From a virus, in IMG/VR virus record IMGVR_UViG_3300002054_000060: 64,000 nt of DNA. One strand, given 5' to 3'. Position numbers and translations under genes: made by a program. The notes under the pieces were generated by a model. That model did not search any database, was not told where the DNA came from, and saw only the letters and a program-made list of their open reading frames with translations. This document shows, in pieces, positions 31,935 through 44,452 of the stretch. How positions within the stretch are numbered: the first letter of the stretch is position 1; each line of letters begins with the position of its first letter.

Positions 31935-31946
31935 GTAAGCGCTCAC
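31935..31946. promoter_or_regulatory. 12-bp box variant (GTAAGCGCTCAC)
   Basis: In the AT-rich gap upstream of 31854. Confidence 0.6.
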
Positions 31947-34621
31947 TCATTGCCAAAAACAGCGTAGTCAAAATCACCAGCGAGAATCCCCTCACGGAAC
32001 CCAGGGGTTTGCTCCACAATGGCCCGGCGCAGCTTGGCGTGCTTTTTCAGGTGCTGGTGGAAGGGGTCTGAGAAGTCGATGATGTAGCAGATGTTCGGGC
32101 CGCTTTTCTTGGCTCGCAAAGCTCGTCCGATACGCTGGCGCAGGCCCGTCTCAGCTTTGCCCCCGCCACCGATTGCGAGAAATCCCACGCTGGGCACATC
32201 GACGCCGACATCCAGAATGGTGGTGCCGATGAGGATACCACCGCGCTTGATGACCTCAATGCCGGCCTTGCGCTGCGCCTTGGAGCTCGACCCCTGGATG
32301 TAGTCCACATCGATGTCAGGGGCTGCCGCCTGCATCATGCGCTTGAGAATCTCCCCGTGTGCTCGCTGCTGCACCAATATGAGCCCCGAGAGGCCATGCC
32401 GGTTGGCACGAATCGTCTCGGTGACAATCTGCCGGTTGCGATCCTCGTTCTCCGTGATGCCCATCTTGACCGCCTTCTGGTACGTCGCTGTGCGCGATAG
32501 CAACAAAGGGGCGCGTGCTGTCAGGTAGCGAAAGTAGGGGCGAGCCAGAATGCCGTTCTCAATAAGCTCTTGCTCACTGACCTGAATGGCGATCTCACCG
32601 GCAGTTGCCATCAGTCGCATGTTCGCCTCCATGTCATCGTTCATGAAGGGTGTTGCTGTCAGTGCCAGCCGGTAGTGCGCGTTCCTGCAGCCGTTCATCA
32701 CGCGAAAATAGGAATCAGAGGACGCTTCGTGTGCCTCCTCCATGATCACGCACTCAAACTTCAACAGCATTTCACGCACGTACACCGCACGCTGGTTGTG
32801 TGCTGCGACCTTGGCCTTGACGCGCTCCTCCACTTCGCGCTCAGGCTCGCGCTTGGCAACCAGTGCTGCTTTGAAGCTCTTGAGCCTCTCGAGCCGCTGG
32901 TGAGCGGATAGCCCGCCCAGGTGATCCCTTGTGAACGCCTTGATTTCCTTCTGCTCCTTGGCGTACTGCGCATCAAGCGTTGACATCAGCTCATCACTCA
33001 CCGATTTCTCCACCATTTGCTGCGCGATGGTCTGCACCATGCCGACGTTGAAGCCCTCGATCACGTTGATGTCGCCTTCGCCGACCATGCCGACCGGGAT
33101 GTTCATCGTCTCCATGATCGAGTCGCGCATCTGGTGCATCAGCACCTTGCGTGTCGTGAGAAATAGGGTGGTGCGACCCAAGTGTTTGAAGGCGATTTTA
33201 CAAACTCGGCTGTTATGCACCACGGTGAAATCAGCCAGCAGGAAGCGATGGTTGCCATCGACCTCAATACCAACGTATTCGCCGTCCTCCGAATCCACAC
33301 TGACCTCAAAACTGGTGTGCGTTGCCACCTTGTTTCTGCTTTGCGAAGTGACCCGCTTGCGTGGCACGCGAGTCGGAATCTCACTCAGCTCGCCCGAAAT
33401 GTGCATACGCTGATAGGGTGCGCCCATTGCCCACTTTTCACTGCGCGAGACGCGATAGCCTAAGCTGCGCCCTAGAAACTGAATAGCGTCAGCGAGCCGC
33501 TTAGACTTCTGGATGATCTCCAAGCTGTTTTTGTGCAGGTAGCCATCGGTGTCAATCAATCCCGCTAGCAGTTGCAGGCGCTGCTGACGACTGCTGGTGA
33601 GGTACTTCATAGGAATGGTCTTGAGCCACTTGCCATCTGGCGTTTCGTAGCGAAAACCGTGCAGCGCTCGACGCAGATGATTGAGCTTGCCGCGTTGTGT
33701 TGAAAGTGCAAGCGTCGGGCACACCCCCTCTTTTTTTCTGGCGTAGTCATTCAGCGACATGCCGTGCCTTATCGACATTCGCTCCAGATACTCTCGAATC
33801 TCAGGCTCTGGGTTGGTAATCTCAACCCCATGAACGGAGCCGTCGCCAAGCCACAGTCCAATCAAATAGGGATCGTGCGGAAAATCCACGGCATCCCATC
33901 CGTCATAACCGACTGAGAATTGCTTGGCGCAGTGCTTGAAGGTCTTGTTTTCTGCCAGGTAGTCCTCGATGTCGATGTCTACCACATCCTTGTCACGATA
34001 CGCCTTGGCTCTGCCGCAGTATTTGAGCGAGAGCGTGTGTCGGTCGTTACAGACCCACTCATCGTAGGAGGTGGCTGCTGTGGGCTTGATCCGGTACATT
34101 TTGGAGCGTCCAGAGTGAGTGCCCGTCACCGTCCTGAGCGTGTTGTCATCGCCAAGTAACTGGTCGCCCACGCGCACATCCTCGATCTTGCGGCGAGTGC
34201 CATCTGACATCAGCACTTCTGTGCCGGGCCGAAAACACTTACCTCCGCCCGTGGCGACCTGCGCAATGATCTGTCGGTGACGCGCCAGCAGCTCCCCTGT
34301 GCGAAACTGATAGTCGTACCGCGGATCATTGCCAAAGGAGTCCACCACGCACTCACGCACGGGCGGTCCCAGTGGGGGTGGCGCCTCGTGGCGTATCACT
34401 GTGACGTGATACTTCGCCGCAGTTAGCGCTTTGTACACCGTGGTGAGAAAGCCTGTGGGGAACTGCCCCTCGCCCCACTTAAAGAACGTCGATTGGCGGA
34501 TCGTGCCGTTGTATTCGGAGGTGTAGCCCAACCGCCCGGAAATCAGTTTCTTCACCTCTCCGTCCACATCCCCGTCAAGTTGTGTGGTGACAGGATTCGA
34601 GAGTAGGCGTATCGACTTCAT
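31943..34621 (-). CDS. SF2 (DEAD/DEAH-like) helicase containing an intein
   Basis: ATGGGK|S Walker A; EEAH; LTATP; TTILDVGVDVP; QRIGRALR. Confidence 0.92.
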   Translation of the reverse strand: MKSIRLLSNPVTTQLDGDVDGEVKKLISGRLGYTSEYNGTIRQSTFFKWGEGQFPTGFLTTVYKALTAAKYHVTVIRHEAPPPLGPPVRECVVDSFGNDPRYDYQFRTGELLARHRQIIAQVATGGGKCFRPGTEVLMSDGTRRKIEDVRVGDQLLGDDNTLRTVTGTHSGRSKMYRIKPTAATSYDEWVCNDRHTLSLKYCGRAKAYRDKDVVDIDIEDYLAENKTFKHCAKQFSVGYDGWDAVDFPHDPYLIGLWLGDGSVHGVEITNPEPEIREYLERMSIRHGMSLNDYARKKEGVCPTLALSTQRGKLNHLRRALHGFRYETPDGKWLKTIPMKYLTSSRQQRLQLLAGLIDTDGYLHKNSLEIIQKSKRLADAIQFLGRSLGYRVSRSEKWAMGAPYQRMHISGELSEIPTRVPRKRVTSQSRNKVATHTSFEVSVDSEDGEYVGIEVDGNHRFLLADFTVVHNSRVCKIAFKHLGRTTLFLTTRKVLMHQMRDSIMETMNIPVGMVGEGDINVIEGFNVGMVQTIAQQMVEKSVSDELMSTLDAQYAKEQKEIKAFTRDHLGGLSAHQRLERLKSFKAALVAKREPEREVEERVKAKVAAHNQRAVYVREMLLKFECVIMEEAHEASSDSYFRVMNGCRNAHYRLALTATPFMNDDMEANMRLMATAGEIAIQVSEQELIENGILARPYFRYLTARAPLLLSRTATYQKAVKMGITENEDRNRQIVTETIRANRHGLSGLILVQQRAHGEILKRMMQAAAPDIDVDYIQGSSSKAQRKAGIEVIKRGGILIGTTILDVGVDVPSVGFLAIGGGGKAETGLRQRIGRALRAKKSGPNICYIIDFSDPFHQHLKKHAKLRRAIVEQTPGFREGILAGDFDYAVFGNE
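33212..34237 (-). mobile_element. intein 1 with LAGLIDADG homing endonuclease (342 aa)
   Basis: CFRPGTEVLMSDG...VVHN|S; LIGLWLGDG and LLAGLIDTDG. Confidence 0.95.
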
Positions 34622-34658
34622 GCAGTTTCTAGTGAATGGGGTCAGGGTTGGTAACTAA

Positions 34659-34670
34659 GTAAGTGCTTAT
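34659..34670. promoter_or_regulatory. 12-bp box (GTAAGTGCTTAT) in the divergent helicase/ParB promoter
   Basis: 11/12 match; TATACT 4 bp downstream. Confidence 0.75.
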
Positions 34671-34726
34671 ACAGTATACTCGCACTGTAAGGCTTATATA
34701 TAAGTTTCACCCAACGACAAAGGCAC

Positions 34727-35428
34727 ATGGGCAAACCTGATCGATCAACGCTCCAAATAGAGCATCTGGATCCCCGCACGCTCAAAGCGAACGGGTGGAA
34801 CACCAATGTGCTCGGTCCCGATGAAGAGGAGAAGCTGGAGGCCTCGCTACGCCGATTCGATTTGTTCGATGCGATCAAGGTGCGCACGCTACCCAACGGT
34901 GACCTGGAGGTGATCGGAGGCAAGCACCGCGCAGAGGCGGCGATCCGTATTGGTTACGAAACCGTGCCGGTGCTGAACCTGGGGCCGCTCGATGACATCA
35001 CCGCACGCGAGATTTCCGCGGTAGATAACGGACGCTATGGCAAGGACGACCCGGTGAAGTTGCTTGCACTCATCGAGGAGCTCGGTGAGGCAGACGTTGA
35101 CCTCTCTGACTACATGATCTACGACCAGGTAGCGATCGACGCAGCACTGGCTTACAAGGGCGTAGACCTATCAGCGCTCGGAGCGGAAGAAGATTCAAAC
35201 CCTGAGCTGTCCGGTGACGACGCCAGAGGGGATGCCAGTGACGATGAGCCGGCACGCACGCGCACCACTCAGCAGACCCTGAAGTTTCAGATGGAGCCGA
35301 CTGAGGCGGAAGCAGTCATGCGCCGCATCAACGACACCATCACCGAACAGGGCATTGCAGAGGGTTCACAGCGAGCCAACGCCGGCGCGGCGCTGCTGTT
35401 TCTGGTACTGGGGGAGGACGCCCTGTGA
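34727..35428 (+). CDS. ParB/Srx-domain protein 1
   Basis: L.ANGWNTN...L..SL.RF...I.VR...VIGGKHR. Confidence 0.85.
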   Translation: MGKPDRSTLQIEHLDPRTLKANGWNTNVLGPDEEEKLEASLRRFDLFDAIKVRTLPNGDLEVIGGKHRAEAAIRIGYETVPVLNLGPLDDITAREISAVDNGRYGKDDPVKLLALIEELGEADVDLSDYMIYDQVAIDAALAYKGVDLSALGAEEDSNPELSGDDARGDASDDEPARTRTTQQTLKFQMEPTEAEAVMRRINDTITEQGIAEGSQRANAGAALLFLVLGEDAL

Positions 35429-36051
35429 ACGACTCAAAGCAGACACTCAAGGTTGAGCAATTTCCCGTTGCAGACCTTGTGCCTTATGAAAAGAACGCCA
35501 AGCATCACCCGCAGCAGCAGGTCGAAGAGCTGGCCGAACGCATAGCCGCTTTCGGATTCGATCAACCCATCGTTATTCGCGGTGATGGCGAGATCATCAA
35601 GGGGCATGGCAGGCGCTTGGCCGTCATGCACTTGGGTTGGGAGAACGTGCCTGTCGTCATCCGCGATGACTTGACAGAGGAGGAGGTACGCCTTGCCAGA
35701 CTCTCAGATAACGCAATGGCGGGCTTAGGCGAATACGACGCCGAGCTGATGGCAGCCGAGATGGCAGAGCTTGCTGATTTGAACCCAGAGATCGATCTAG
35801 CACTCGCCGGCACGCAGTTCTTCGATATCGATTCGGGCAACTTCTCGCTGATGCTTTCGGGCGATCAAGACGACGCGCCTACACCGGAGAAGGATGGCAA
35901 GCCCAATATGGACACGGGCACCGATGTCGAGGACAAGGATTACGTGGCGCAATACCTGATAACGCTGGAGTGCTCTGGCGAAGCCGAACAGGAGGCTGTC
36001 TACGAGCTGCTTACCGGTAAGGGTTACCGACCAAAGGTACAGACGCTATGA
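35425..36051 (+). CDS. ParB/Srx-domain protein 2
   Basis: LVPYEKNAKHH...I..FGFDQPIVI...IIKGHGRRLA...RLSDN. Confidence 0.9.
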   Translation: MNDSKQTLKVEQFPVADLVPYEKNAKHHPQQQVEELAERIAAFGFDQPIVIRGDGEIIKGHGRRLAVMHLGWENVPVVIRDDLTEEEVRLARLSDNAMAGLGEYDAELMAAEMAELADLNPEIDLALAGTQFFDIDSGNFSLMLSGDQDDAPTPEKDGKPNMDTGTDVEDKDYVAQYLITLECSGEAEQEAVYELLTGKGYRPKVQTL

Positions 36052-36659
36052 ACGCCGTGGTGGGTAGAAAATCAATTTCGGCCAAGCGGCGCGAGTTGAT
36101 TCTTGAGCAGGGGTCAACGGGCATTGTTCAGATAGACACCGGCATCGCGTTTGGCTACACCGGTGAAATCATCACCAGTGTCTACGGCCCAAATCACTGG
36201 CTTGTGCCGGACGCTCTGGTATCAGGCCAGCCATCCCCTGAGCGCATTTTTGCGCACACCGCGGTGACTTACTTAGGGGTTGGCGAAATGACTTCTTTCC
36301 GCAAGGAGCGCATTGCGTTGCAAGCCTGTATGAGATCCCTCACAGCTAGACAAACCTTTGTGGCAACCAACACACTCGATTTGAAGGGTCAGTTGAGTTA
36401 CCTGTTGCGCTCACTGGCTCTTGGACCTATGGGCATCACCAATCGAGAGGGGTTGGTCCTGGAGGTATCGAGAACGAACCTGGCGGCAATGCTCGGTTGC
36501 AGTCGAGAAATGGTGGGACGCATCATTAGGGAGCTAACCGTCTCCGGCGTTATTCATTGCCTTGGCGGCTGCAAAAGTATCACCGTGCTTGGGGTTTATC
36601 GAGACCCTCCAGAGCCACTAATGCCATTGCCCCTTTCTTCAATGGGGCACGCATCATGA
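36048..36659 (+). CDS. Crp/Fnr-family transcriptional regulator
   Basis: SRTNLAAMLGCSREMVGRIIREL...G.I is the Crp HTH signature. Confidence 0.85.
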   Translation: MNAVVGRKSISAKRRELILEQGSTGIVQIDTGIAFGYTGEIITSVYGPNHWLVPDALVSGQPSPERIFAHTAVTYLGVGEMTSFRKERIALQACMRSLTARQTFVATNTLDLKGQLSYLLRSLALGPMGITNREGLVLEVSRTNLAAMLGCSREMVGRIIRELTVSGVIHCLGGCKSITVLGVYRDPPEPLMPLPLSSMGHAS

Positions 36660-38803
36660 AGTTTGAACACAGTGTTCGGGTTGACTACCAACACTCGTTT
36701 CGCGCCGACCGCGTGGCGGGCATGTTCGACATCGACCCGGCTGAGTACGAGCTTGAGAAAACCTGGTCAGTGGACATGCCTTTTGAGGACATTCCTGACT
36801 GGCGCGTGGGCCTGATCGTTGGTCCAAGCGGATCCGGTAAGTGCCTTGGCCCCGAGACAGAGATCATCATGTATGACGGCAGCTTCAAGCGCGTTGACCA
36901 GATCAAAGTGGGCGACAAGCTGCTCGGCGATGACAACAAGCCTCGCAGGGTCACCGCGATAACTCGAGGTAGATCCAAGATGTACAAGATTGAGCCTGGT
37001 CGCGGTTACGATACATGGCGCTGCAATGACAAGCACATCATGACCTTGGTAAGTGGCTCCAAGACCGCTCTTGCCGAACGCGACGAGGTGGTGGACATTG
37101 GCATCGACGAATATCTGAAGCTGAACAAGGGTCAAAAACCACCTCTCAAGCAATTTTCAGTTGGATTTGACGGGTGGACTCGCACAGACTTTCCGTTTGA
37201 CCCTTACTTGATGGGGCTGTGGCTGGGTGACGGAAGCCGAGGTGATGTGAGAATACACAACCCGGATCAGGAGATTATTGATTACCTGCACGAGTTTGTT
37301 GACGAGAATCCTGAGTACAGGCTGGTCAGCAGAGAGGATGAGGAACAGTGCCCATGTCACTCGTTGAGAACAAAGGGCAAGGGAATGTATGCCAAGAACC
37401 CCTTTCTTGATTTTGTTAGGACTTTGATTGATGTCGATGGCAATAAGTATGTACCTACTGAGTATCTGACATCAGCCATTGATCAGCGAGCCCGCTTGCT
37501 GGCCGGCTTGATTGACACAGATGGCTATAACGGCAATGGCTCTATTGAGATCATTCAGCGATCCAAGCCGCTGGCTGATGCGGTTCAGTTTTTGGCTCGA
37601 TCTCTCGGGCTGCGAGTGAAGCGCTGTGTAAAGCGCGTCGAGGGTTACGACCATGATTACCACCGCATGTCGATCTCGGGCGATTTTTCACACATACCCA
37701 TTCGCATCGAGCGCAAAAAGCCGGGCGAGTTCAAGGGAAACAGAAATCCGCTGCGCGCTGGTTTTGAGGTTATTGAGGAGGAAAGCGAGGGCGATTACGT
37801 CGGCATCATGGTTGACGGCAACCAGCGCTTCCTGAAGTCTGATTTTGTCGTGGTGCATAACACCACCGTGGCACGCAGAGCCTTTGGTGACGCCTACCAC
37901 GAGGGGTTTGAATGGGACGGTCGCTCGCTTATCGACAACTTCCCCAAAGAGATGAGTTCTGACGAGGTGGTGGCGTGTCTCTCCAGTGTCGGGCTGTCGT
38001 CACCCCCTTCGTGGTTGAAGCCGCATCACGTCCTATCCAACGGAGAGAAGTTCCGTGCTGACATGGCAAGGCTCATCGCAGAGGCGCCGGATGACAAGCC
38101 GATCGTGGTGGATGAGTTCACCTCTGTGGTGGATCGACAGGTGGCAAAGATCGCCTCGCATTGTGTGGCGAAGAACGTCAGAAAGAAGAACAAGCGTTTT
38201 GTGGCTGTTTCCTGCCATGACGACATCGCGGAGTGGCTCGAGCCGGACTGGATATACCAGGTCGATTCGGGCGAGTTCCGCAGGGGGTCTCTTCGGCGGC
38301 CTCAACTTGTACTCCAGGTCGAAAGAAGAGACAACAAAGTATGGCGACTCTTCGCTGGTCATCACTATTTAGACGCCTCAAACCACAAGTCGAGTCACTG
38401 CTACGTCGCCTCGCTAGAGGGCAAACCGGTTGGCTTTTGCAGCGTACTGAAATTCCCCCACGCGCACCCGAACATGGCGAATATGTGGCGTGCGAGTCGT
38501 TCTGTTTGCCTGCCTGACTATCAAGGGCTCGGCATTGGGGTAAAGCTGATCGATGCGGTCGGAGGTATATACGTAGCTGACGGTAAGCGCTTTAGAGCCA
38601 CAGCCAGCCACCCGGCAATGATTCATCACTTCAATAACACTCCGAACTGGTTGATGGTGCGAGCCCCGGGTCGCGCACCGCGCCCAGGCAAGAACTCCAA
38701 GATAACGAGTCAGTCGCACGCACGCCTGACGGCAAGCTACGAATACGTCAGCGACGAGCATCTCGCCGAACGACAACAAAAAGAGGTCATAGACCCAAAA
38801 TGA
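36656..38803 (+). CDS. ABC-ATPase / GNAT acyltransferase fusion containing an intein
   Basis: GPSGSGK|T; LSNGE; VVDEFTS; SCH; C-terminal VCLPDYQGLGIG acetyl-CoA motif; start reset to ATG 36656. Confidence 0.9.
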   Translation: MKFEHSVRVDYQHSFRADRVAGMFDIDPAEYELEKTWSVDMPFEDIPDWRVGLIVGPSGSGKCLGPETEIIMYDGSFKRVDQIKVGDKLLGDDNKPRRVTAITRGRSKMYKIEPGRGYDTWRCNDKHIMTLVSGSKTALAERDEVVDIGIDEYLKLNKGQKPPLKQFSVGFDGWTRTDFPFDPYLMGLWLGDGSRGDVRIHNPDQEIIDYLHEFVDENPEYRLVSREDEEQCPCHSLRTKGKGMYAKNPFLDFVRTLIDVDGNKYVPTEYLTSAIDQRARLLAGLIDTDGYNGNGSIEIIQRSKPLADAVQFLARSLGLRVKRCVKRVEGYDHDYHRMSISGDFSHIPIRIERKKPGEFKGNRNPLRAGFEVIEEESEGDYVGIMVDGNQRFLKSDFVVVHNTTVARRAFGDAYHEGFEWDGRSLIDNFPKEMSSDEVVACLSSVGLSSPPSWLKPHHVLSNGEKFRADMARLIAEAPDDKPIVVDEFTSVVDRQVAKIASHCVAKNVRKKNKRFVAVSCHDDIAEWLEPDWIYQVDSGEFRRGSLRRPQLVLQVERRDNKVWRLFAGHHYLDASNHKSSHCYVASLEGKPVGFCSVLKFPHAHPNMANMWRASRSVCLPDYQGLGIGVKLIDAVGGIYVADGKRFRATASHPAMIHHFNNTPNWLMVRAPGRAPRPGKNSKITSQSHARLTASYEYVSDEHLAERQQKEVIDPK
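36842..37861 (+). mobile_element. intein 2 with LAGLIDADG homing endonuclease (340 aa)
   Basis: CLGPETEIIMYDG...VVHN|T; LMGLWLGDG and LLAGLIDTDG. Confidence 0.95.
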
Positions 38804-39090
38804 GCCGCGGATTTTCCGAAAAACAGAAGTCCATTCTCAAGGTCATCATGGTGGGCAATGAGGACGGCACCGACGTTGACATGGATCAGTTGATCAACAG
38901 GGTCAACTACAAGACCACTAAGGAGTCAATGCAGTTTAGCCTGCGTGCGCTCATCAAGCGCGGGTACGTTGAGAAGCTCGGCTGCGAGAAGCGCCGCGGC
39001 CACTCACGTCGTTTGATCAGGTGCACAGAAGAGGCGCGCTTGGCGTTTGAAAACTACTTGCCCTTCGTGCCGGACAAAGAGCCTTCGTGA
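38800..39090 (+). CDS. winged-helix DNA-binding protein
   Basis: SEKQKSILKVI...SMQFSLRALIKRGYVEK pattern. Confidence 0.7.
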   Translation: MSRGFSEKQKSILKVIMVGNEDGTDVDMDQLINRVNYKTTKESMQFSLRALIKRGYVEKLGCEKRRGHSRRLIRCTEEARLAFENYLPFVPDKEPS

Positions 39091-39842
39091 GCGACATGGG
39101 TGCTTCCGCTGCTGACATCAGGGCGGAAGAAAAAACGAAGCGAGGCCCACGTCGAAACTGGACTCCGAGTGAGTGGCTCAAGGCTCGCACCATGTACGAG
39201 ACTGGCGACTACACCGTTAAGGAAATTGCCGATAAATTTGGTCGCAACAAGACCTCACTCTCCCAAAGGTTCAAGCGCTTTGGTGTCAAGAAAGGCACCA
39301 ACTTCACTGAGGCATCCACCAAGGTCGAGCGAGATCTGCGGCGCGAGCAGCGTGAGAAGGCTGACGAGACCGTAAAGCGAGCCAAGGAAACCAAGGAGGA
39401 ACACTACAAGTGGGCCCGCTCTCTGTCGCAAATGGCCGTATCGATACTCGCCAAGGCTCAGAGCGAGAGCCGACCGATCGGTATGGTCAAGCCGGACATT
39501 CTGGCCGTCAAGGCGGCAATGGAGGCGCTACAAAAGGGGCAGGACATGCGCAACATCGCGCTGGGGTTAGATAAAGGCGACATCCTCGACACCGATGAGA
39601 TCCCCGAATTTGGCATCGTCGAGATGACCGAGGACGAGCGACTGGAGGTAATACGCAAAGCGGATTCTCTGCTTGAACTCTCCGAGGACATGGACATCAC
39701 TACAACAGGTGAAGGGGAGCGAGAAGAAGCCGTCGCGCAGCAAGAGTCCGAGGTGCGCTCAAATATGGAGCGCCTGAAGTCAGAGTATGTCGATGATGGC
39801 GGTGTCGATGGCGCTGCTCGCATACCGGGTCACGACGCCTGA
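39087..39842 (+). CDS. terS: terminase small subunit (putative)
   Basis: N-terminal HTH (YETGDYTVKEIADKFG); directly upstream of TerL. Confidence 0.7.
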   Translation: MSDMGASAADIRAEEKTKRGPRRNWTPSEWLKARTMYETGDYTVKEIADKFGRNKTSLSQRFKRFGVKKGTNFTEASTKVERDLRREQREKADETVKRAKETKEEHYKWARSLSQMAVSILAKAQSESRPIGMVKPDILAVKAAMEALQKGQDMRNIALGLDKGDILDTDEIPEFGIVEMTEDERLEVIRKADSLLELSEDMDITTTGEGEREEAVAQQESEVRSNMERLKSEYVDDGGVDGAARIPGHDA

Positions 39843-39846
39843 GCTC

Positions 39847-41718
39847 ATGAATGATTTGCAGTTGCCAGCCGATGCGATGCGGCTGCACAGTAAACAGTTT
39901 GAGGTGTTCCGTAACCGCTCGCGTTTCCGCTGTGTGGTGGCTGGGCGCAGATTTGGTAAGTGCCAGAGTTTTGACACTTTGGTGGCAATGCAGGACGGAT
40001 CGTACCAGAAACTCGGCACCATCAAGGCCGGGGATCAGGTACTGGCGCTCAACGAAGCGACCTGCGAGCTTGAGCCGCGCACGGTGCAGCACGTCCATGA
40101 CAATGGCGTGCGTGAGGTCATCACGCTGACATTGACCAACGGGCGTGAAATCACCGCAACGCCCAATCACCCTTTCCTCGTGGATGGGCAGTGGATGGAG
40201 CTACAGGACGTGGAGCCTGGGCAGTTGATGGCGGTATCTAAACGTGAAACTTCGGGCAAGGAGTGCAGTAAGTACATACCGATTCGCTTTGAAGATTTTG
40301 TTGCTCATTTGCGACCTCACTCCAGCAGGGATACCGCGGAACTGCGTGAGCTGTTGAAAAGCTGGCGCAAGCAATCTACCAGCCGCATCAGCACTCGGCG
40401 CTATGAGCAGCTCAGGAAATTCTCAGACGGGCACTTCGATGCGCTGCTGTACGGCGATCTGCAGTTTTGCGAAGTCGAGTCGGTCAAGCACGAGCCAGAG
40501 CCGCAACAGACGTATGACCTGACCGTTGAGGGGCACCACAACTTTGTGGCGAACTCGATGATTACGCACAACACCGTTTTGTCTCAAGCCGAAATCATCA
40601 AGGCCGCCTCCAAGCCCAACAAACAGGTTTGGTACATAGCGCCGACCTACCGCATGGCGAAGCAAATCATGTGGCGAGAAATAAGAGATGTGATACCTCG
40701 CAGGTGGGTGCGCAAGACAAACCAGACCGCCATGAGCATCGACCTGGTTAACGGGTCGCGGATCGAGCTCAAGGGGTCAGATGACCCTGACAAGCTGCGA
40801 GGTGTGGCTCTCGATTTTGTAGTGCTGGACGAGTTCCAAGCTATGCGAAAGGAGACCTGGAGCGAGGCCATCCGGCCAACTCTTGCTACCACAGGGGGTC
40901 AGGCTTTGTTTATTGGGACGCCACTTTTGCGTAACCACCTCTACGACATGTACATGCAGGGCCAGAACCCCGTCAACATCAAAGAGGGCACATTTCGCTC
41001 GTGGCAGTTCGTCACCGCAGACAGTCCGTTTATTCCGCCGCGTGAAATTGAGATGGCGAAGCGCGAACTTGACCCCAAAACTTTCGGGCAAGAGTTCTTA
41101 GCCTCGTTTAATCTAATGTCCGGCAGGGTCTATTACGCCTTCAACCGCGACACCCATGTGGCAGATCTGCCGTTCAATCCCAACTTGCCTCTCTGGGTGG
41201 GTCAGGATTTCAACGTCGATCCGATGGCAGCCTCTGTGATGCAGTGGCACCCTGACCTGAACCAGCTCTGGGTCATCGACGAGATTGTGCTGCCGAACTC
41301 CAACACCCAAGAGGCGGTCGAGGAGCTGGAGCGCCGGTACTGGCGCAACAAGCGCAACACGAATATCTACCCGGATGCGACCGGTGCGAATCGCTCCACC
41401 TCGAGTTTCAAATCCGACATCGACATCATCCGGGACAGTGGCTACAACCGTATCAAGATGCGCAAGGTCAACCCGCCCGTTGCCGATCGAATCGCTGCGG
41501 TCAATAGAATGCTGCTGTCGGCTTCCGGGGCCGTCAGGATGCGTGTTGACCGTAAATGTACGCATCACATTCGCGCCTTTGAGCAGGTGGTCTACAAGCC
41601 CGGCTCTCGCGATGTGGACAAATCAGACGACATCGAGCACATCCTGGATGCCTGCGGTTACACGGTCCACGCTGAGTTCCCCACACGCAAGATACACATC
41701 CTTGGTGTCAACATTTGA
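39847..41718 (+). CDS. terL: terminase large subunit containing a mini-intein
   Basis: VAGRRFGK|T; IAPTYRMAK; LRG..LD.VVLDE; GQDFNVDPM; EHILDACGY; start ATG 39847. Confidence 0.95.
   Translation: MNDLQLPADAMRLHSKQFEVFRNRSRFRCVVAGRRFGKCQSFDTLVAMQDGSYQKLGTIKAGDQVLALNEATCELEPRTVQHVHDNGVREVITLTLTNGREITATPNHPFLVDGQWMELQDVEPGQLMAVSKRETSGKECSKYIPIRFEDFVAHLRPHSSRDTAELRELLKSWRKQSTSRISTRRYEQLRKFSDGHFDALLYGDLQFCEVESVKHEPEPQQTYDLTVEGHHNFVANSMITHNTVLSQAEIIKAASKPNKQVWYIAPTYRMAKQIMWREIRDVIPRRWVRKTNQTAMSIDLVNGSRIELKGSDDPDKLRGVALDFVVLDEFQAMRKETWSEAIRPTLATTGGQALFIGTPLLRNHLYDMYMQGQNPVNIKEGTFRSWQFVTADSPFIPPREIEMAKRELDPKTFGQEFLASFNLMSGRVYYAFNRDTHVADLPFNPNLPLWVGQDFNVDPMAASVMQWHPDLNQLWVIDEIVLPNSNTQEAVEELERRYWRNKRNTNIYPDATGANRSTSSFKSDIDIIRDSGYNRIKMRKVNPPVADRIAAVNRMLLSASGAVRMRVDRKCTHHIRAFEQVVYKPGSRDVDKSDDIEHILDACGYTVHAEFPTRKIHILGVNI
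39961..40572 (+). mobile_element. intein 3, mini-intein without LAGLIDADG motifs (204 aa)
   Basis: CQSFDTLV...ITATPNHPFL...TYDLTVEGHHNFVAN...THN|T. Confidence 0.92.
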
Positions 41719-41771
41719 ACACTGCGGTTGTGCATTACTGATAAAGTGCTATCATTTCAAGCAATTACACC

Positions 41772-41783
41772 GTAAGCACTTAC
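41772..41783. promoter_or_regulatory. 12-bp box GTAAGCACTTAC upstream of portal
   Basis: Symmetric form; 16 bp downstream of a TTGTGC-16-TATCAT promoter-like pair. Confidence 0.8.
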
Positions 41784-41833
41784 TTAGTTTCAACGTGCGT
41801 GAGCAAGCGTGATGCACACCGCCTGACCTTTCG

Positions 41834-43513
41834 ATGCTATTCGCTGACTCCCCAACACCTGATAAGCAAGCGCTGCTACGCCTTATCAACCGACGCCACC
41901 CGGCTTATCGTGAGAACGAAAGTCACTGGCGTTTCTGCCTGTCCAGCTATGAGGCACGCAGGAGTTGGTTCGGGAAGAATATCCACCCCTATTACAAGGA
42001 AGGGGATGAGAACTACGCAAAGCGCATAGAGCGCGCCTACCGGTTCAATCACACCCGTGAGGTGGTGGACCTGGTTAACAAGTATCTGTTTCGCGGCACC
42101 GTTATTCGCAATAGCGATGATGCGCCCAAGTGCTTGACAGACTTCTGGAGTGACGCCACCGGGCGTGGTCAGGACATCGATCAGTTTTCCAAAAAGGCGG
42201 CTAATCGATCCTCAATCATGGGCCGTGTTTGGGTTGTTGTTGACTCAACGCGCACCGAGGCTGTGCTCTCCAAGGCTGATGAGCAGGCCAACGGTGACCA
42301 GGTGTACGCCTACATTGTGCTGCCGCAGGACGTGCTCGATATGTCTTTTGACAGTCGAGGCCGCCTTAACTGGATTTTCATTCGAGAGGCGTTCCGTGAC
42401 GATGAAAACCCATTTACGGGCGAAGCCACCGAGCACAACAATCGCTACCGCTACAGGCTGTGGACGCGCACGGGATGGCTGTTGATCGAGACCGCTCGTG
42501 AGGATGCTGCAGCCGCAGAATCGACCACCACCAGCAGTATGACGAGCAAGGTGCGTATCACCAAGGAAACAAAGGGCGAACACGGACTGGGTGAAGTGCC
42601 GGTGACCTGGTGTGACCACATGGAGGAGGCGGATGAAGCCTACACAACCTCCGGTCTGGTGGCCGACATTGCCTACCTGGATCGCGCCGTGGCGAACTAC
42701 TTGTCAAACCTGGATGTGATCATTCAGGACCAGACCTTCAGCCAGCTTGCCATGCCAGCACAGGGTTTGCTGCCCGGTAAAGAAGGCCACGAGGCGCTTA
42801 TAGAGGCCGGCACCAAGTCCATTTTCACTTACGACGGTGAATCGGGCCAAAAGCCGTTCTATCTTTCGCCCGATGTGGATCAGTCGATGCTGCTGCTGGA
42901 CGTGATCAAGCAGGTCATCAATGAGATTTACCACACCGTTGGCCTATCTGGTGAGCGCACCAAGCAGGACAACGCCCTAGGGGTGGATAACTCCTCGGGT
43001 GTCGCAAAAGCCTATGACTTTGACCGCATCAACGCGATGCTGGTCAACAAAGCGTATGCGTTAGATAAGTTCGAGCAGCGCCTGGCTCGCCTGGTGTGTG
43101 CGTACCACGGCGAAAAAATTGACGCTAAAGCCGAGGACTTCATCAAGTACCCCGAAGACTTTGATGTTCGAGGGCTTGCCGATGAATTTGACATCGCTGC
43201 CAACCTGCAAGTGTTGGGTATGCCTGATGTGGTGCGCCGCGAACAAGCCAGGGGCTTGACCAAGAAGATTTTTCCCCGCGCCTCGAAGTCGCTGCAAAGC
43301 GAGATCGATGACGCACTTGAAGAATGGCCTGTGGATCCGGTTGTGCAGGCCAAGGCGCTTGCGGAGGCTGCGATTCCCAATGCCAATGACGACGGACTCT
43401 CATCTCGACCTACAAAGTCAGATGGCGAGACCGGTATTAAGAAGCCGAGCAGACAAGGCCAGGTCACCGATGACGGTGCCCGGGTCAGCTCACCGAAACC
43501 TGACGAAGATTAA
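41834..43513 (+). CDS. portal protein
   Basis: Position after TerL; 559 aa; RFNHTREVVDL and SGVAKAYDF motifs. Confidence 0.85.
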   Translation: MLFADSPTPDKQALLRLINRRHPAYRENESHWRFCLSSYEARRSWFGKNIHPYYKEGDENYAKRIERAYRFNHTREVVDLVNKYLFRGTVIRNSDDAPKCLTDFWSDATGRGQDIDQFSKKAANRSSIMGRVWVVVDSTRTEAVLSKADEQANGDQVYAYIVLPQDVLDMSFDSRGRLNWIFIREAFRDDENPFTGEATEHNNRYRYRLWTRTGWLLIETAREDAAAAESTTTSSMTSKVRITKETKGEHGLGEVPVTWCDHMEEADEAYTTSGLVADIAYLDRAVANYLSNLDVIIQDQTFSQLAMPAQGLLPGKEGHEALIEAGTKSIFTYDGESGQKPFYLSPDVDQSMLLLDVIKQVINEIYHTVGLSGERTKQDNALGVDNSSGVAKAYDFDRINAMLVNKAYALDKFEQRLARLVCAYHGEKIDAKAEDFIKYPEDFDVRGLADEFDIAANLQVLGMPDVVRREQARGLTKKIFPRASKSLQSEIDDALEEWPVDPVVQAKALAEAAIPNANDDGLSSRPTKSDGETGIKKPSRQGQVTDDGARVSSPKPDED

Positions 43514-43534
43514 CCGTCACAGAGACCCTATCCG

Positions 43535-44452
43535 ATGAAAACCCCTTTCCAGTACGAACTCGACAAGCCCGCTCCGCTGGCTCACCTGAACTACGTGGCC
43601 GATGACGGCAGCGACGGCGGTGAAACACCCAAGGACGCGCCTGCGGCTGATCCCAAACCGAAAGAAGCACCGGCTGCCGATCCTGCGCCCAAAGATCCGC
43701 CTGCTGCTGACCCCAAACCGAAAGAAGAGCCGCCTGCGGACAACAGCCTCGATGACAGCGCAAAGGCTTTGCTGCGCGAAGTCATGGAGAAGAAGGCTCG
43801 CATCAAGGATCTGGAGTCCAAGGGAGTACAGCAGGACGAGAAACGGATAGCCCTTGAGAAAGAGCTGCAAGAGTTCCGCGAGGCCAAGCAAGCCGCCGAG
43901 CTCAAAGCGCTGGAGGAATCCAATGACTTTGAGGGCGTCAAGCAACGCATGGCCGAACAGCACAAGCAAGAGATGGCGAACGCCGTCACTGAGGCCACTC
44001 AGACCCTTCAGGAAAAGATCGACAACCTGGAGCAGATGACCAGCGATTACGAGGGCAACATCGCCCAGCTACTGCGCGGCTCCAGCTTCAAGCAGAGCAA
44101 GTACATCGCAGAGGAGACGGTGCTGCCGGCAGCGCACGCAGAGCGCACCTACGAGGACTTTTTCGATGTCGAAGGTATCGAAATCGTCGGATACAACAAG
44201 CCGCGTGGCGAGAAAGAACGCACGCCGCTGGTAGACGGGCAGGGCAAGCCGCTCAAGTTCGAGGAGGCTATCGCTGAGATCGTCAAGGCAGACCCTGATT
44301 ACAACAACATCGCGCGCTCCAAGCTCAAGCCTGGGGCGCAATCCAACACCGCCAGCGCATCCAGCGATGCGCTCGACGACAACAACGGTTCCGATTCGGT
44401 ACGCGGCCTCAGTCGTATCGAAGCCTCCCTGGCGGCTCAGAAAAGCGCCTAA
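43535..44452 (+). CDS. head scaffolding protein
   Basis: Coiled coil; between portal and MCP; N-terminal 10-aa PAADPKPKE repeats. Confidence 0.75.
   Translation: MKTPFQYELDKPAPLAHLNYVADDGSDGGETPKDAPAADPKPKEAPAADPAPKDPPAADPKPKEEPPADNSLDDSAKALLREVMEKKARIKDLESKGVQQDEKRIALEKELQEFREAKQAAELKALEESNDFEGVKQRMAEQHKQEMANAVTEATQTLQEKIDNLEQMTSDYEGNIAQLLRGSSFKQSKYIAEETVLPAAHAERTYEDFFDVEGIEIVGYNKPRGEKERTPLVDGQGKPLKFEEAIAEIVKADPDYNNIARSKLKPGAQSNTASASSDALDDNNGSDSVRGLSRIEASLAAQKSA

Follow-up and report, generated by a model that had tools for sequence, protein, structure and literature searches.

We here describe a gene module of the virus record IMGVR_UViG_3300002054_000060, studied in a window of 64,000 nucleotides (nt) to which all positions refer. 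At the core of the module, a ParB-fold protein (ParB2) is paired with a fusion of an ABC-type ATPase and a GNAT acyltransferase (ABC/GNAT), both encoded directly ahead of the terminase genes. The linkage of the two proteins is near-obligate, as seen from gene adjacency, overlaps and fusions. Based on this gene context we tentatively propose that ParB2-ABC/GNAT acylates a base of the phage DNA, a role that we regard as possible and still short of probable. A DNA-modifying role of the GNAT+ABC family is already predicted in print, as a prediction only. New in this work are the quantified ParB2 linkage, the abundance of full fusions, a negative test for kinship with the Mom protein of phage Mu, and evidence that an intein and a Crp-family gene in the operon are private to this phage.

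The source record is a provirus of 103,961 bp, 94% complete according to CheckV and embedded in a 386-kb metagenomic scaffold. Six plus-strand genes occupy positions 34727-39842, and from ParB1 through the TerS-like gene each gene shares a 4-nt start/stop overlap, ATGA or GTGA, with the next. The order is ParB1, ParB2, a Crp-family helix-turn-helix (HTH) protein, the intein-split ABC-ATPase::GNAT, a protein of 96 amino acids (aa) and a TerS-like protein, followed by TerL (Table 1). The TerS-like open reading frame (ORF) overlaps the intein-bearing TerL ORF by 56 nt, and the portal gene comes next after TerL. A preliminary description made from the letters alone had named two ParB genes, a Crp-family gene, an ABC-ATPase::GNAT gene and a winged HTH-TerS-TerL series, read as one coupled operon running into the terminase. 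All of these genes were recovered in place with profile matches, and the overlaps support the single operon.

The ABC/GNAT ORF begins at ATG 36656, and not at TTG 36557, and ends at 38803, giving 715 aa, the same in an independent gene call. Without the intein, the spliced extein is 375 aa long, and in it the Walker A motif is restored as GPSGSGK/T. The extein further contains LSNGE as ABC signature, VVDEF as Walker B, SCHDD as H-loop and QGLGIG as the acetyl-CoA motif of the GNAT part; across 40 homologues there is no variation in Walker A, signature, Walker B and H-loop, nor in the Q-G-x-G-x-G motif of GNAT. The extein was assigned to phrog_11143 (E 3e-86), a family annotated as of unknown function. 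Clustering at 90% leaves more than 7,000 relatives, almost all of them without an intein and close to 360 aa in length. The usual database label of the gene, ABC transporter, is a mislabel. For a close relative that has no intein, AlphaFold gave a two-domain model (pLDDT 85.5), with residues 1-204 forming a compact ABC nucleotide-binding domain of the transporter type (Z ~15), in which a coiled coil is not present, and residues 211-362 forming the GNAT domain (Z ~14). The C-terminal GNAT domain is matched by Pfam Acetyltransf_1/7 and, folded alone from the window sequence, reaches a pLDDT of 84.4. A PDB profile search with ABC/GNAT returned generic ABC transporters only, and whole-chain Foldseek yielded generic nucleotide-binding domains together with a weak match to 2zpa (TmcA; TM 0.28).

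In ParB2, the nucleotide-binding domain of ParB contains Box II GHGRR and is accompanied by a helical ADN segment, a linker that is acidic and variable, and a beta-alpha-beta domain at the C-terminus; an HTH region was not found in the protein. The C-terminal domain of about 35 aa (window positions 35950-36051) follows the family consensus VEC..E..Q...L...G..CR.L, with two nearly invariant cysteines, the second of which is replaced by proline in the window protein. In a survey of 80 IMG/VR loci retrieved with the family alignment, a ParB2-type gene lies immediately upstream of ABC/GNAT in 78, the other two loci reaching the contig end at this point, and the two genes typically overlap by 21 nt. 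The same pairing is found in Lactococcus P335, Rhodococcus phage Jace, Arthrobacter EastWest and Pseudoalteromonas SL25. The single ParB of P335 (Orf23), SL25 and Jace (gp85) is the orthologue of ParB2 and not of ParB1, an extra paralogue limited to a group of ~105-kb phages.

Fusions point in the same direction. A length-shifted search was used to collect the best 120 long relatives of ABC/GNAT; 47 of these measure 535-641 aa, and all 47 are complete single chains of the type ParB2::ABC::GNAT. Because such full-length fusions exist, ParB2 and ABC/GNAT likely act as one working unit, in line with classical gene-fusion evidence. Complex prediction for the unfused ParB2 and ABC/GNAT gave a score of 0.47, compared to 0.01 for the best of three controls, with at least 75% of contacts agreeing between runs and a partner pLDDT of at least 72. 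This was graded as weak support, as the mark is reached by 58 of 80 solved complexes and two of 110 mismatched pairs, and at 0.60 or below by only 7 of those 80 complexes together with both passing mismatches. A role of the two ParB proteins in ParABS partition was rejected: a ParA-type partner (AAA_31/ParA) was not found in the genome, and ParB1 and ParB2 are therefore not partition proteins; in addition, ParB2 has no HTH and TIGR00180 scores far below the cut-off.

ABC/GNAT was detected by tblastn in 68 phage records, with hosts in Gordonia/Rhodococcus, Arthrobacter, Streptococcus, Lactococcus, Oenococcus, Porphyromonas, Tenacibaculum, Nonlabens, Aeromonas, Vibrio, Rhizobium, Burkholderia and Leptospira, hence spanning Actinobacteria, Firmicutes, Bacteroidota, Proteobacteria and Spirochaetes. 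We note that many Firmicute phages, such as Lactococcus P335 (locus L003, Orf24/Orf25) and the Streptococcus Javan prophages, encode ABC and GNAT in two genes side by side, visible as two tblastn pieces.

The second constant of the module is its place at the terminase. The gene after ABC/GNAT in the IMG/VR loci is most often TerS, which belongs to many different PHROG families, and some 300-370 nt downstream comes TerL, in several types including those of lambda gpA and T4. The ParB-terminase large subunit (ParB-Tls) locus, described as a home of enzymes for DNA modification at packaging (PMC4738411), has the same layout, with ParB_N and enzyme genes lying directly upstream of TerS/TerL. ParB-fold::DNA methyltransferase fusions are common in prophages (PMC12704722), and phage ParBs without HTH have been shown experimentally to be required activators of DNA thymine dioxygenases encoded beside terminases (PMC13229309, bioRxiv 10.1101/2025.08.14.668559). 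The preliminary description had likewise appealed to ParB and modification-enzyme clusters next to terminases, and this is a recognised arrangement (PMC4738411, PMC13229309).

Other neighbours of ABC/GNAT vary. In Rhodococcus phage Jace, gp87-gp88 (L002:5930-7041), directly 3' of ABC/GNAT, encode an aspartate decarboxylase (PanD) and a CoA-transferase of family III, which may represent a route to beta-alanine or to an unusual acyl-CoA donor, and in an IMG/VR contig a GT2 glycosyltransferase occupies the same position (L061:7804-8568). These occasional neighbours hint at group-transfer chemistry. In the T4-like Aeromonas phage PX29, a protein with a weak N6-methylase match is encoded two genes downstream of ABC/GNAT.

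We propose that the module operates as follows. The core would be a two-part machine in which ParB2, a ParB/Srx-fold nucleotide switch with no HTH of its own, binds ABC/GNAT, the complex being made together with the packaging genes from the shared, overlapping operon. It would then engage replicated phage DNA using ATP, through dimerisation of the ABC domain, and probably CTP or another NTP, through ParB. Acyl-group transfer from acyl-CoA would follow, most likely onto the exocyclic amine of a DNA base, and the packaged DNA would thereby be marked or protected, presumably against restriction. In this phage, the ATPase would work only once splicing has removed its intein. Three further proteins, namely ParB1, the Crp-family regulator and that of 96 aa, are lineage- or phage-specific additions to this core. 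The wider picture, with a new acyl mark on a DNA base set by a nucleotide-gated ParB clamp, timed to packaging and wired in this phage to a Crp-family regulator and a repeated 12-bp box (GTAAGTGCTTAC), we regard as rather doubtful.

The proposal is in agreement with earlier predictions. According to PMC7824862, which cites Iyer, Zhang, Burroughs and Aravind (NAR 2013), the GNAT+ABC family is predicted to acylate a DNA base, and Tenacibaculum phage pT24 is named there as a carrier of the system; pT24 is a direct tblastn match to the window ABC/GNAT (40% identity, E 1e-55). That a phage GNAT can act on a base in polymeric DNA is exemplified by gp48 of phage PaMx11, which acetylates such a base (PMC8989533).

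Several observations weigh against DNA as the acceptor. The sequences name no acyl acceptor, and the GNAT domain resembles generic N-acetyltransferases of small molecules and proteins, also in its generic fold; the nearest solved structures to its model are 2ae6, 1y9k, an IAA acetyltransferase, phosphinothricin acetyltransferases, YncA, SpeG and RimI (TM ~0.55-0.6). Accessory genes of all kinds tend to collect immediately ahead of terS, a general hotspot, and well-used carriers such as Lactococcus P335 and the Streptococcus pyogenes prophages are not known to have odd bases. Families of thymidylate-synthase-type hydroxymethylases and of N6/N4 methyltransferases were not found in the genome; a multi-step hypermodification pathway would need families of these kinds or TET/JBP enzymes. 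The TET/JBP search of the genome also returned nothing, but is uninformative because control genomes were equally silent. Roughly nine of 46 ParB2 orthologues are without the phosphate-binding arginine of Box II and have AGNGT in place of GHGR (e.g. L025, L061, L067, L069 and L083), so that NTP gating cannot be universal, and these orthologues may fail to bind a nucleotide. Finally, PX29 (L087) and the T4-like Vibrio phage vB_VmeM-32 (L088) encode ABC/GNAT alone and far from the terminase, with no ParB-like neighbour of the gene detected by Pfam.

A protein rather than a base could be the acceptor. ParB2 would in that case place ABC/GNAT on the phage DNA as a tethered acetyltransferase for the lysine or N-terminus of a DNA-bound protein, such as a host nucleoid protein, TerS/TerL, the portal or ParB itself, and the DNA would be cleared or prepared for packaging. 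The closest structural neighbours of the GNAT domain do include N-terminal acetyltransferases (RimI 5isv, Naa50 6yzz, Naa10 6c95 and NatE 4xnh), the tight link to TerS/TerL fits a role in packaging equally well as DNA marking, and phage GNATs acetylating host proteins are known, e.g. Rac of phiKMV-like phages (reviewed in PMC7824862). However, a conserved target in the terminase is unlikely given that the terminase partners come from many unrelated families, hosts from many phyla speak against a single host protein, and the analogous ParB-linked enzymes of known substrate act on DNA (PMC13229309, PMC4738411), and we consider this explanation unlikely. It is even harder to see in the module an enzyme of anti-defence or host takeover whose substrate for acetylation is a small molecule, nucleotide signal or charged tRNA, and that occupies the terminase site only as a permissive hotspot at the head of the late operon. 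This would leave the near-obligate ParB2 partner, the frequent fusion to ParB2 and the ABC ATPase unexplained, and PADLOC yields only generic ABC and ParB-methyltransferase matches and no further defence-system assignment. We judge it improbable, even though the best fold matches of the GNAT domain acetylate small molecules or amino acids (phosphinothricin, IAA, spermidine), the T4-like phages hold the gene alone and far from the terminase, and the module is accessory, occurring in Lactococcus P335 and some Gordonia phages though not in every relative.

The pairing of ParB with an ABC-type ATPase also recalls ParB-SMC, where ParB loads SMC, and the strong TerS/TerL synteny would suit a non-enzymatic accessory of packaging, in which a ParB clamp and an ABC clamp organise concatemeric DNA or hand it to the terminase, with GNAT as a binding module only. 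Yet the acyl-CoA motif and many other GNAT residues are invariant, pointing to catalysis, and the ABC domain is of the transporter nucleotide-binding-domain type without a coiled coil; we consider a purely structural role very improbable. Acylation of a DNA base remains the reading that we prefer, with the reservations given above.

The GNAT+ABC system of Iyer et al. has the same family, architecture and predicted role as the window ABC/GNAT, from which the window gene differs by its Walker A intein, the two upstream ParB paralogues and the inserted Crp-family gene. The 5mYOX thymine dioxygenases (PMC13229309) are likewise paired, by the terminase, with a short HTH-less ParB consisting of a nucleotide-binding and a C-terminal domain, and they comprise ParB-linked and ParB-free subclasses, paralleling the ParB-less ABC/GNAT of the T4-like Aeromonas and Vibrio phages; their enzyme is an Fe/2-oxoglutarate dioxygenase, whereas that of the window is ABC/GNAT. 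In the ParB_N::methyltransferase fusions (PMC4738411, PMC12704722), located at the same site upstream of the terminase, the ParB part is a strong match to ParB2 (phrog_498, E 1e-34; PADLOC MTase_II, E 3e-23), and the partner is an S-adenosylmethionine-dependent methyltransferase instead of an acyltransferase with an ATPase.

Mu Mom (PDB 8bv8) is a phage enzyme of the GNAT superfamily that acylates a DNA base, with no ATPase and no ParB partner. The analogy to Mom drawn in the preliminary description applies at the level of the superfamily, but a Mom-specific likeness does not: no profile similarity was detected between Mom and the window GNAT (hhalign probability 0.1%), on which ground a specific relationship was rejected, and 8bv8 does not appear in the top 50 that Foldseek listed for the GNAT model, where generic GNATs lead. 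TmcA/NAT10, the ATP-dependent RNA cytidine N4-acetyltransferases, combine a P-loop ATPase with a GNAT that acetylates a nucleobase, and 2zpa is the weak match to them; their ATPase is helicase-like and not ABC, and the window protein is without a tRNA-binding domain, so the likeness is architectural only.

ParB2 and ABC/GNAT are among the most widespread phage modules without an experimentally tested function, and the natural ParB2::ABC::GNAT single chains represent ready-made constructs for biochemistry. If DNA is acylated, this would be a new kind of base modification, one that no experiment has yet revealed although thousands of phages would have it, with bearing on restriction evasion, sequencing artefacts and DNA-writing tools. 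If a protein is acetylated instead, a previously unknown step of phage packaging would be at hand.

Table 1 Features of the ParB-ABC/GNAT operon and its surroundings (window positions)
Feature	Position	Strand	Remarks
SF2 helicase with LAGLIDADG intein	31943..34621	-	Divergent from the module; conserved neighbour in the ~105-kb phage group
Box GTAAGTGCTTAt, one-mismatch copy of the 12-mer GTAAGTGCTTAC	34659..34670	+	In the 105-nt divergent gap between helicase and ParB1 (34622-34726)
ParB1, 233 aa, orphan ParB_N/Srx fold	34727..35428	+	ParB_N E 7e-5; phrog_723 E 8e-42; Box II GGKHR
ParB2, 208 aa, ParB_N-fold adaptor	35425..36051	+	ParB_N E 3e-8; phrog_930 E 4e-40; Box II GHGRR intact
Crp/Fnr-family HTH protein, 203 aa, orphan	36048..36659	+	HTH_Crp_2 E 5e-8; in the variable slot that separates ParB2 from ABC/GNAT
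N-extein of ABC/GNAT, 62 aa, ends in Walker A GPSGSGK	36656..36841	+	phrog_11143
Intein, 340 aa, behind the Walker A lysine; Hint domain and LAGLIDADG homing-endonuclease domain	36842..37861	+	
C-extein, remaining ABC nucleotide-binding domain	37862..38287	+	Thr+1 of Walker A, LSNGE, Walker B VVDEF, H-loop
C-extein, GNAT acyltransferase domain	38288..38803	+	Intact acyl-CoA motif Q-x-x-G-x-G; generic GNAT fold, TM ~0.6
96-aa protein, phrog_900, possibly winged HTH	38800..39090	+	Weak SarA-family match only; position conserved in the ~105-kb group
TerS-like DNA-binding protein	39087..39842	+	phrog_867; weak HTH_23 match
Large terminase TerL, mini-intein after Walker A GK	39787..41718	+	

The intein of ABC/GNAT, with Cys1, a C-terminal His-Asn and Thr at +1 around its Hint and LAGLIDADG domains, is one of three in this region. 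The inteins reside in three unrelated P-loop proteins (ABC/GNAT, the helicase and TerL), each directly after the Walker A Gly-Lys, and that of ABC/GNAT is 47% identical over its full 340 aa to that of the neighbouring helicase. Because relatives contain the helicase intein but not the ABC one, ectopic spread between P-loops is suggested. The preliminary description had proposed that splicing gates the ATPase, a view that found no backing, as the intein is not present in ABC/GNAT of the closest relatives, in the 80 viral loci or in 119 other long homologues. A working P-loop requires splicing in this phage, with no sign of regulation, and the family works intein-free elsewhere; the insertion is a selfish one and no part of the mechanism. 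Its location in the P-loop would point to strong functional constraint on the ATPase site.

The Crp-like protein aligns with NCBIfam CRP only at positions 121-211, i.e. the C-helix and HTH (E 2e-12), leaving 88 N-terminal residues outside the match. It has no PHROG match, and a word-based search of 5.8 billion proteins retrieved no relative other than itself; the best representative from exhaustive HMMER is 29% identical, aligned over residues 15-170. This relative (L092:5001-5636) is encoded in the early replication/recombination region of an unrelated 61-kb phage contig, indicating that diverged Crp-family regulators circulate among phages. Megablast of positions 34000-44000 against phage records gave no match. 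Closest in synteny are a 106.8-kb ENA contig and a prophage of Methylocaldum szegediense, both with the helicase facing ParB1-ParB2-ABC/GNAT-small protein-TerS-like-TerL and both with an intein-free ABC/GNAT. Their Crp slot is empty in L004 and taken by an unrelated 124-aa ORF in L005, in agreement with the earlier remark that an embedded Crp gene is unusual. The gene is best read as a putative regulator carried by the phage and inserted at a variable place in the operon, and, as judged by these comparisons, it and the intein are insertions private to this phage.

The box that had been noticed ahead of the operon is real, and differs from GTAAGTGCTTAC by one mismatch. When up to one mismatch is allowed, this word, of which GTGAGTGCTTAC is a frequent variant, occurs in about 26 copies in the 104-kb genome where about 0.5 would be expected, frequently heading a gene block, and in the window at, e.g., 17109, 26714, 34659 and 41772. 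Because of this excess, the box appears to be a genome-wide control element, not particular to the ParB-ABC/GNAT operon, and it probably represents a promoter or operator of the phage. The word is not present in the equivalent helicase/ParB1 gap of the two syntenic relatives (L004 and L005), and its 5-2-5 geometry is unlike that of classical Crp/Fnr sites. In a scan for sigma-70 promoters, sites were no more frequent than in shuffled sequence, with none upstream of ParB1, and terminator-like sites were modestly above shuffles (15 compared to 9.3 +/- 3.1).

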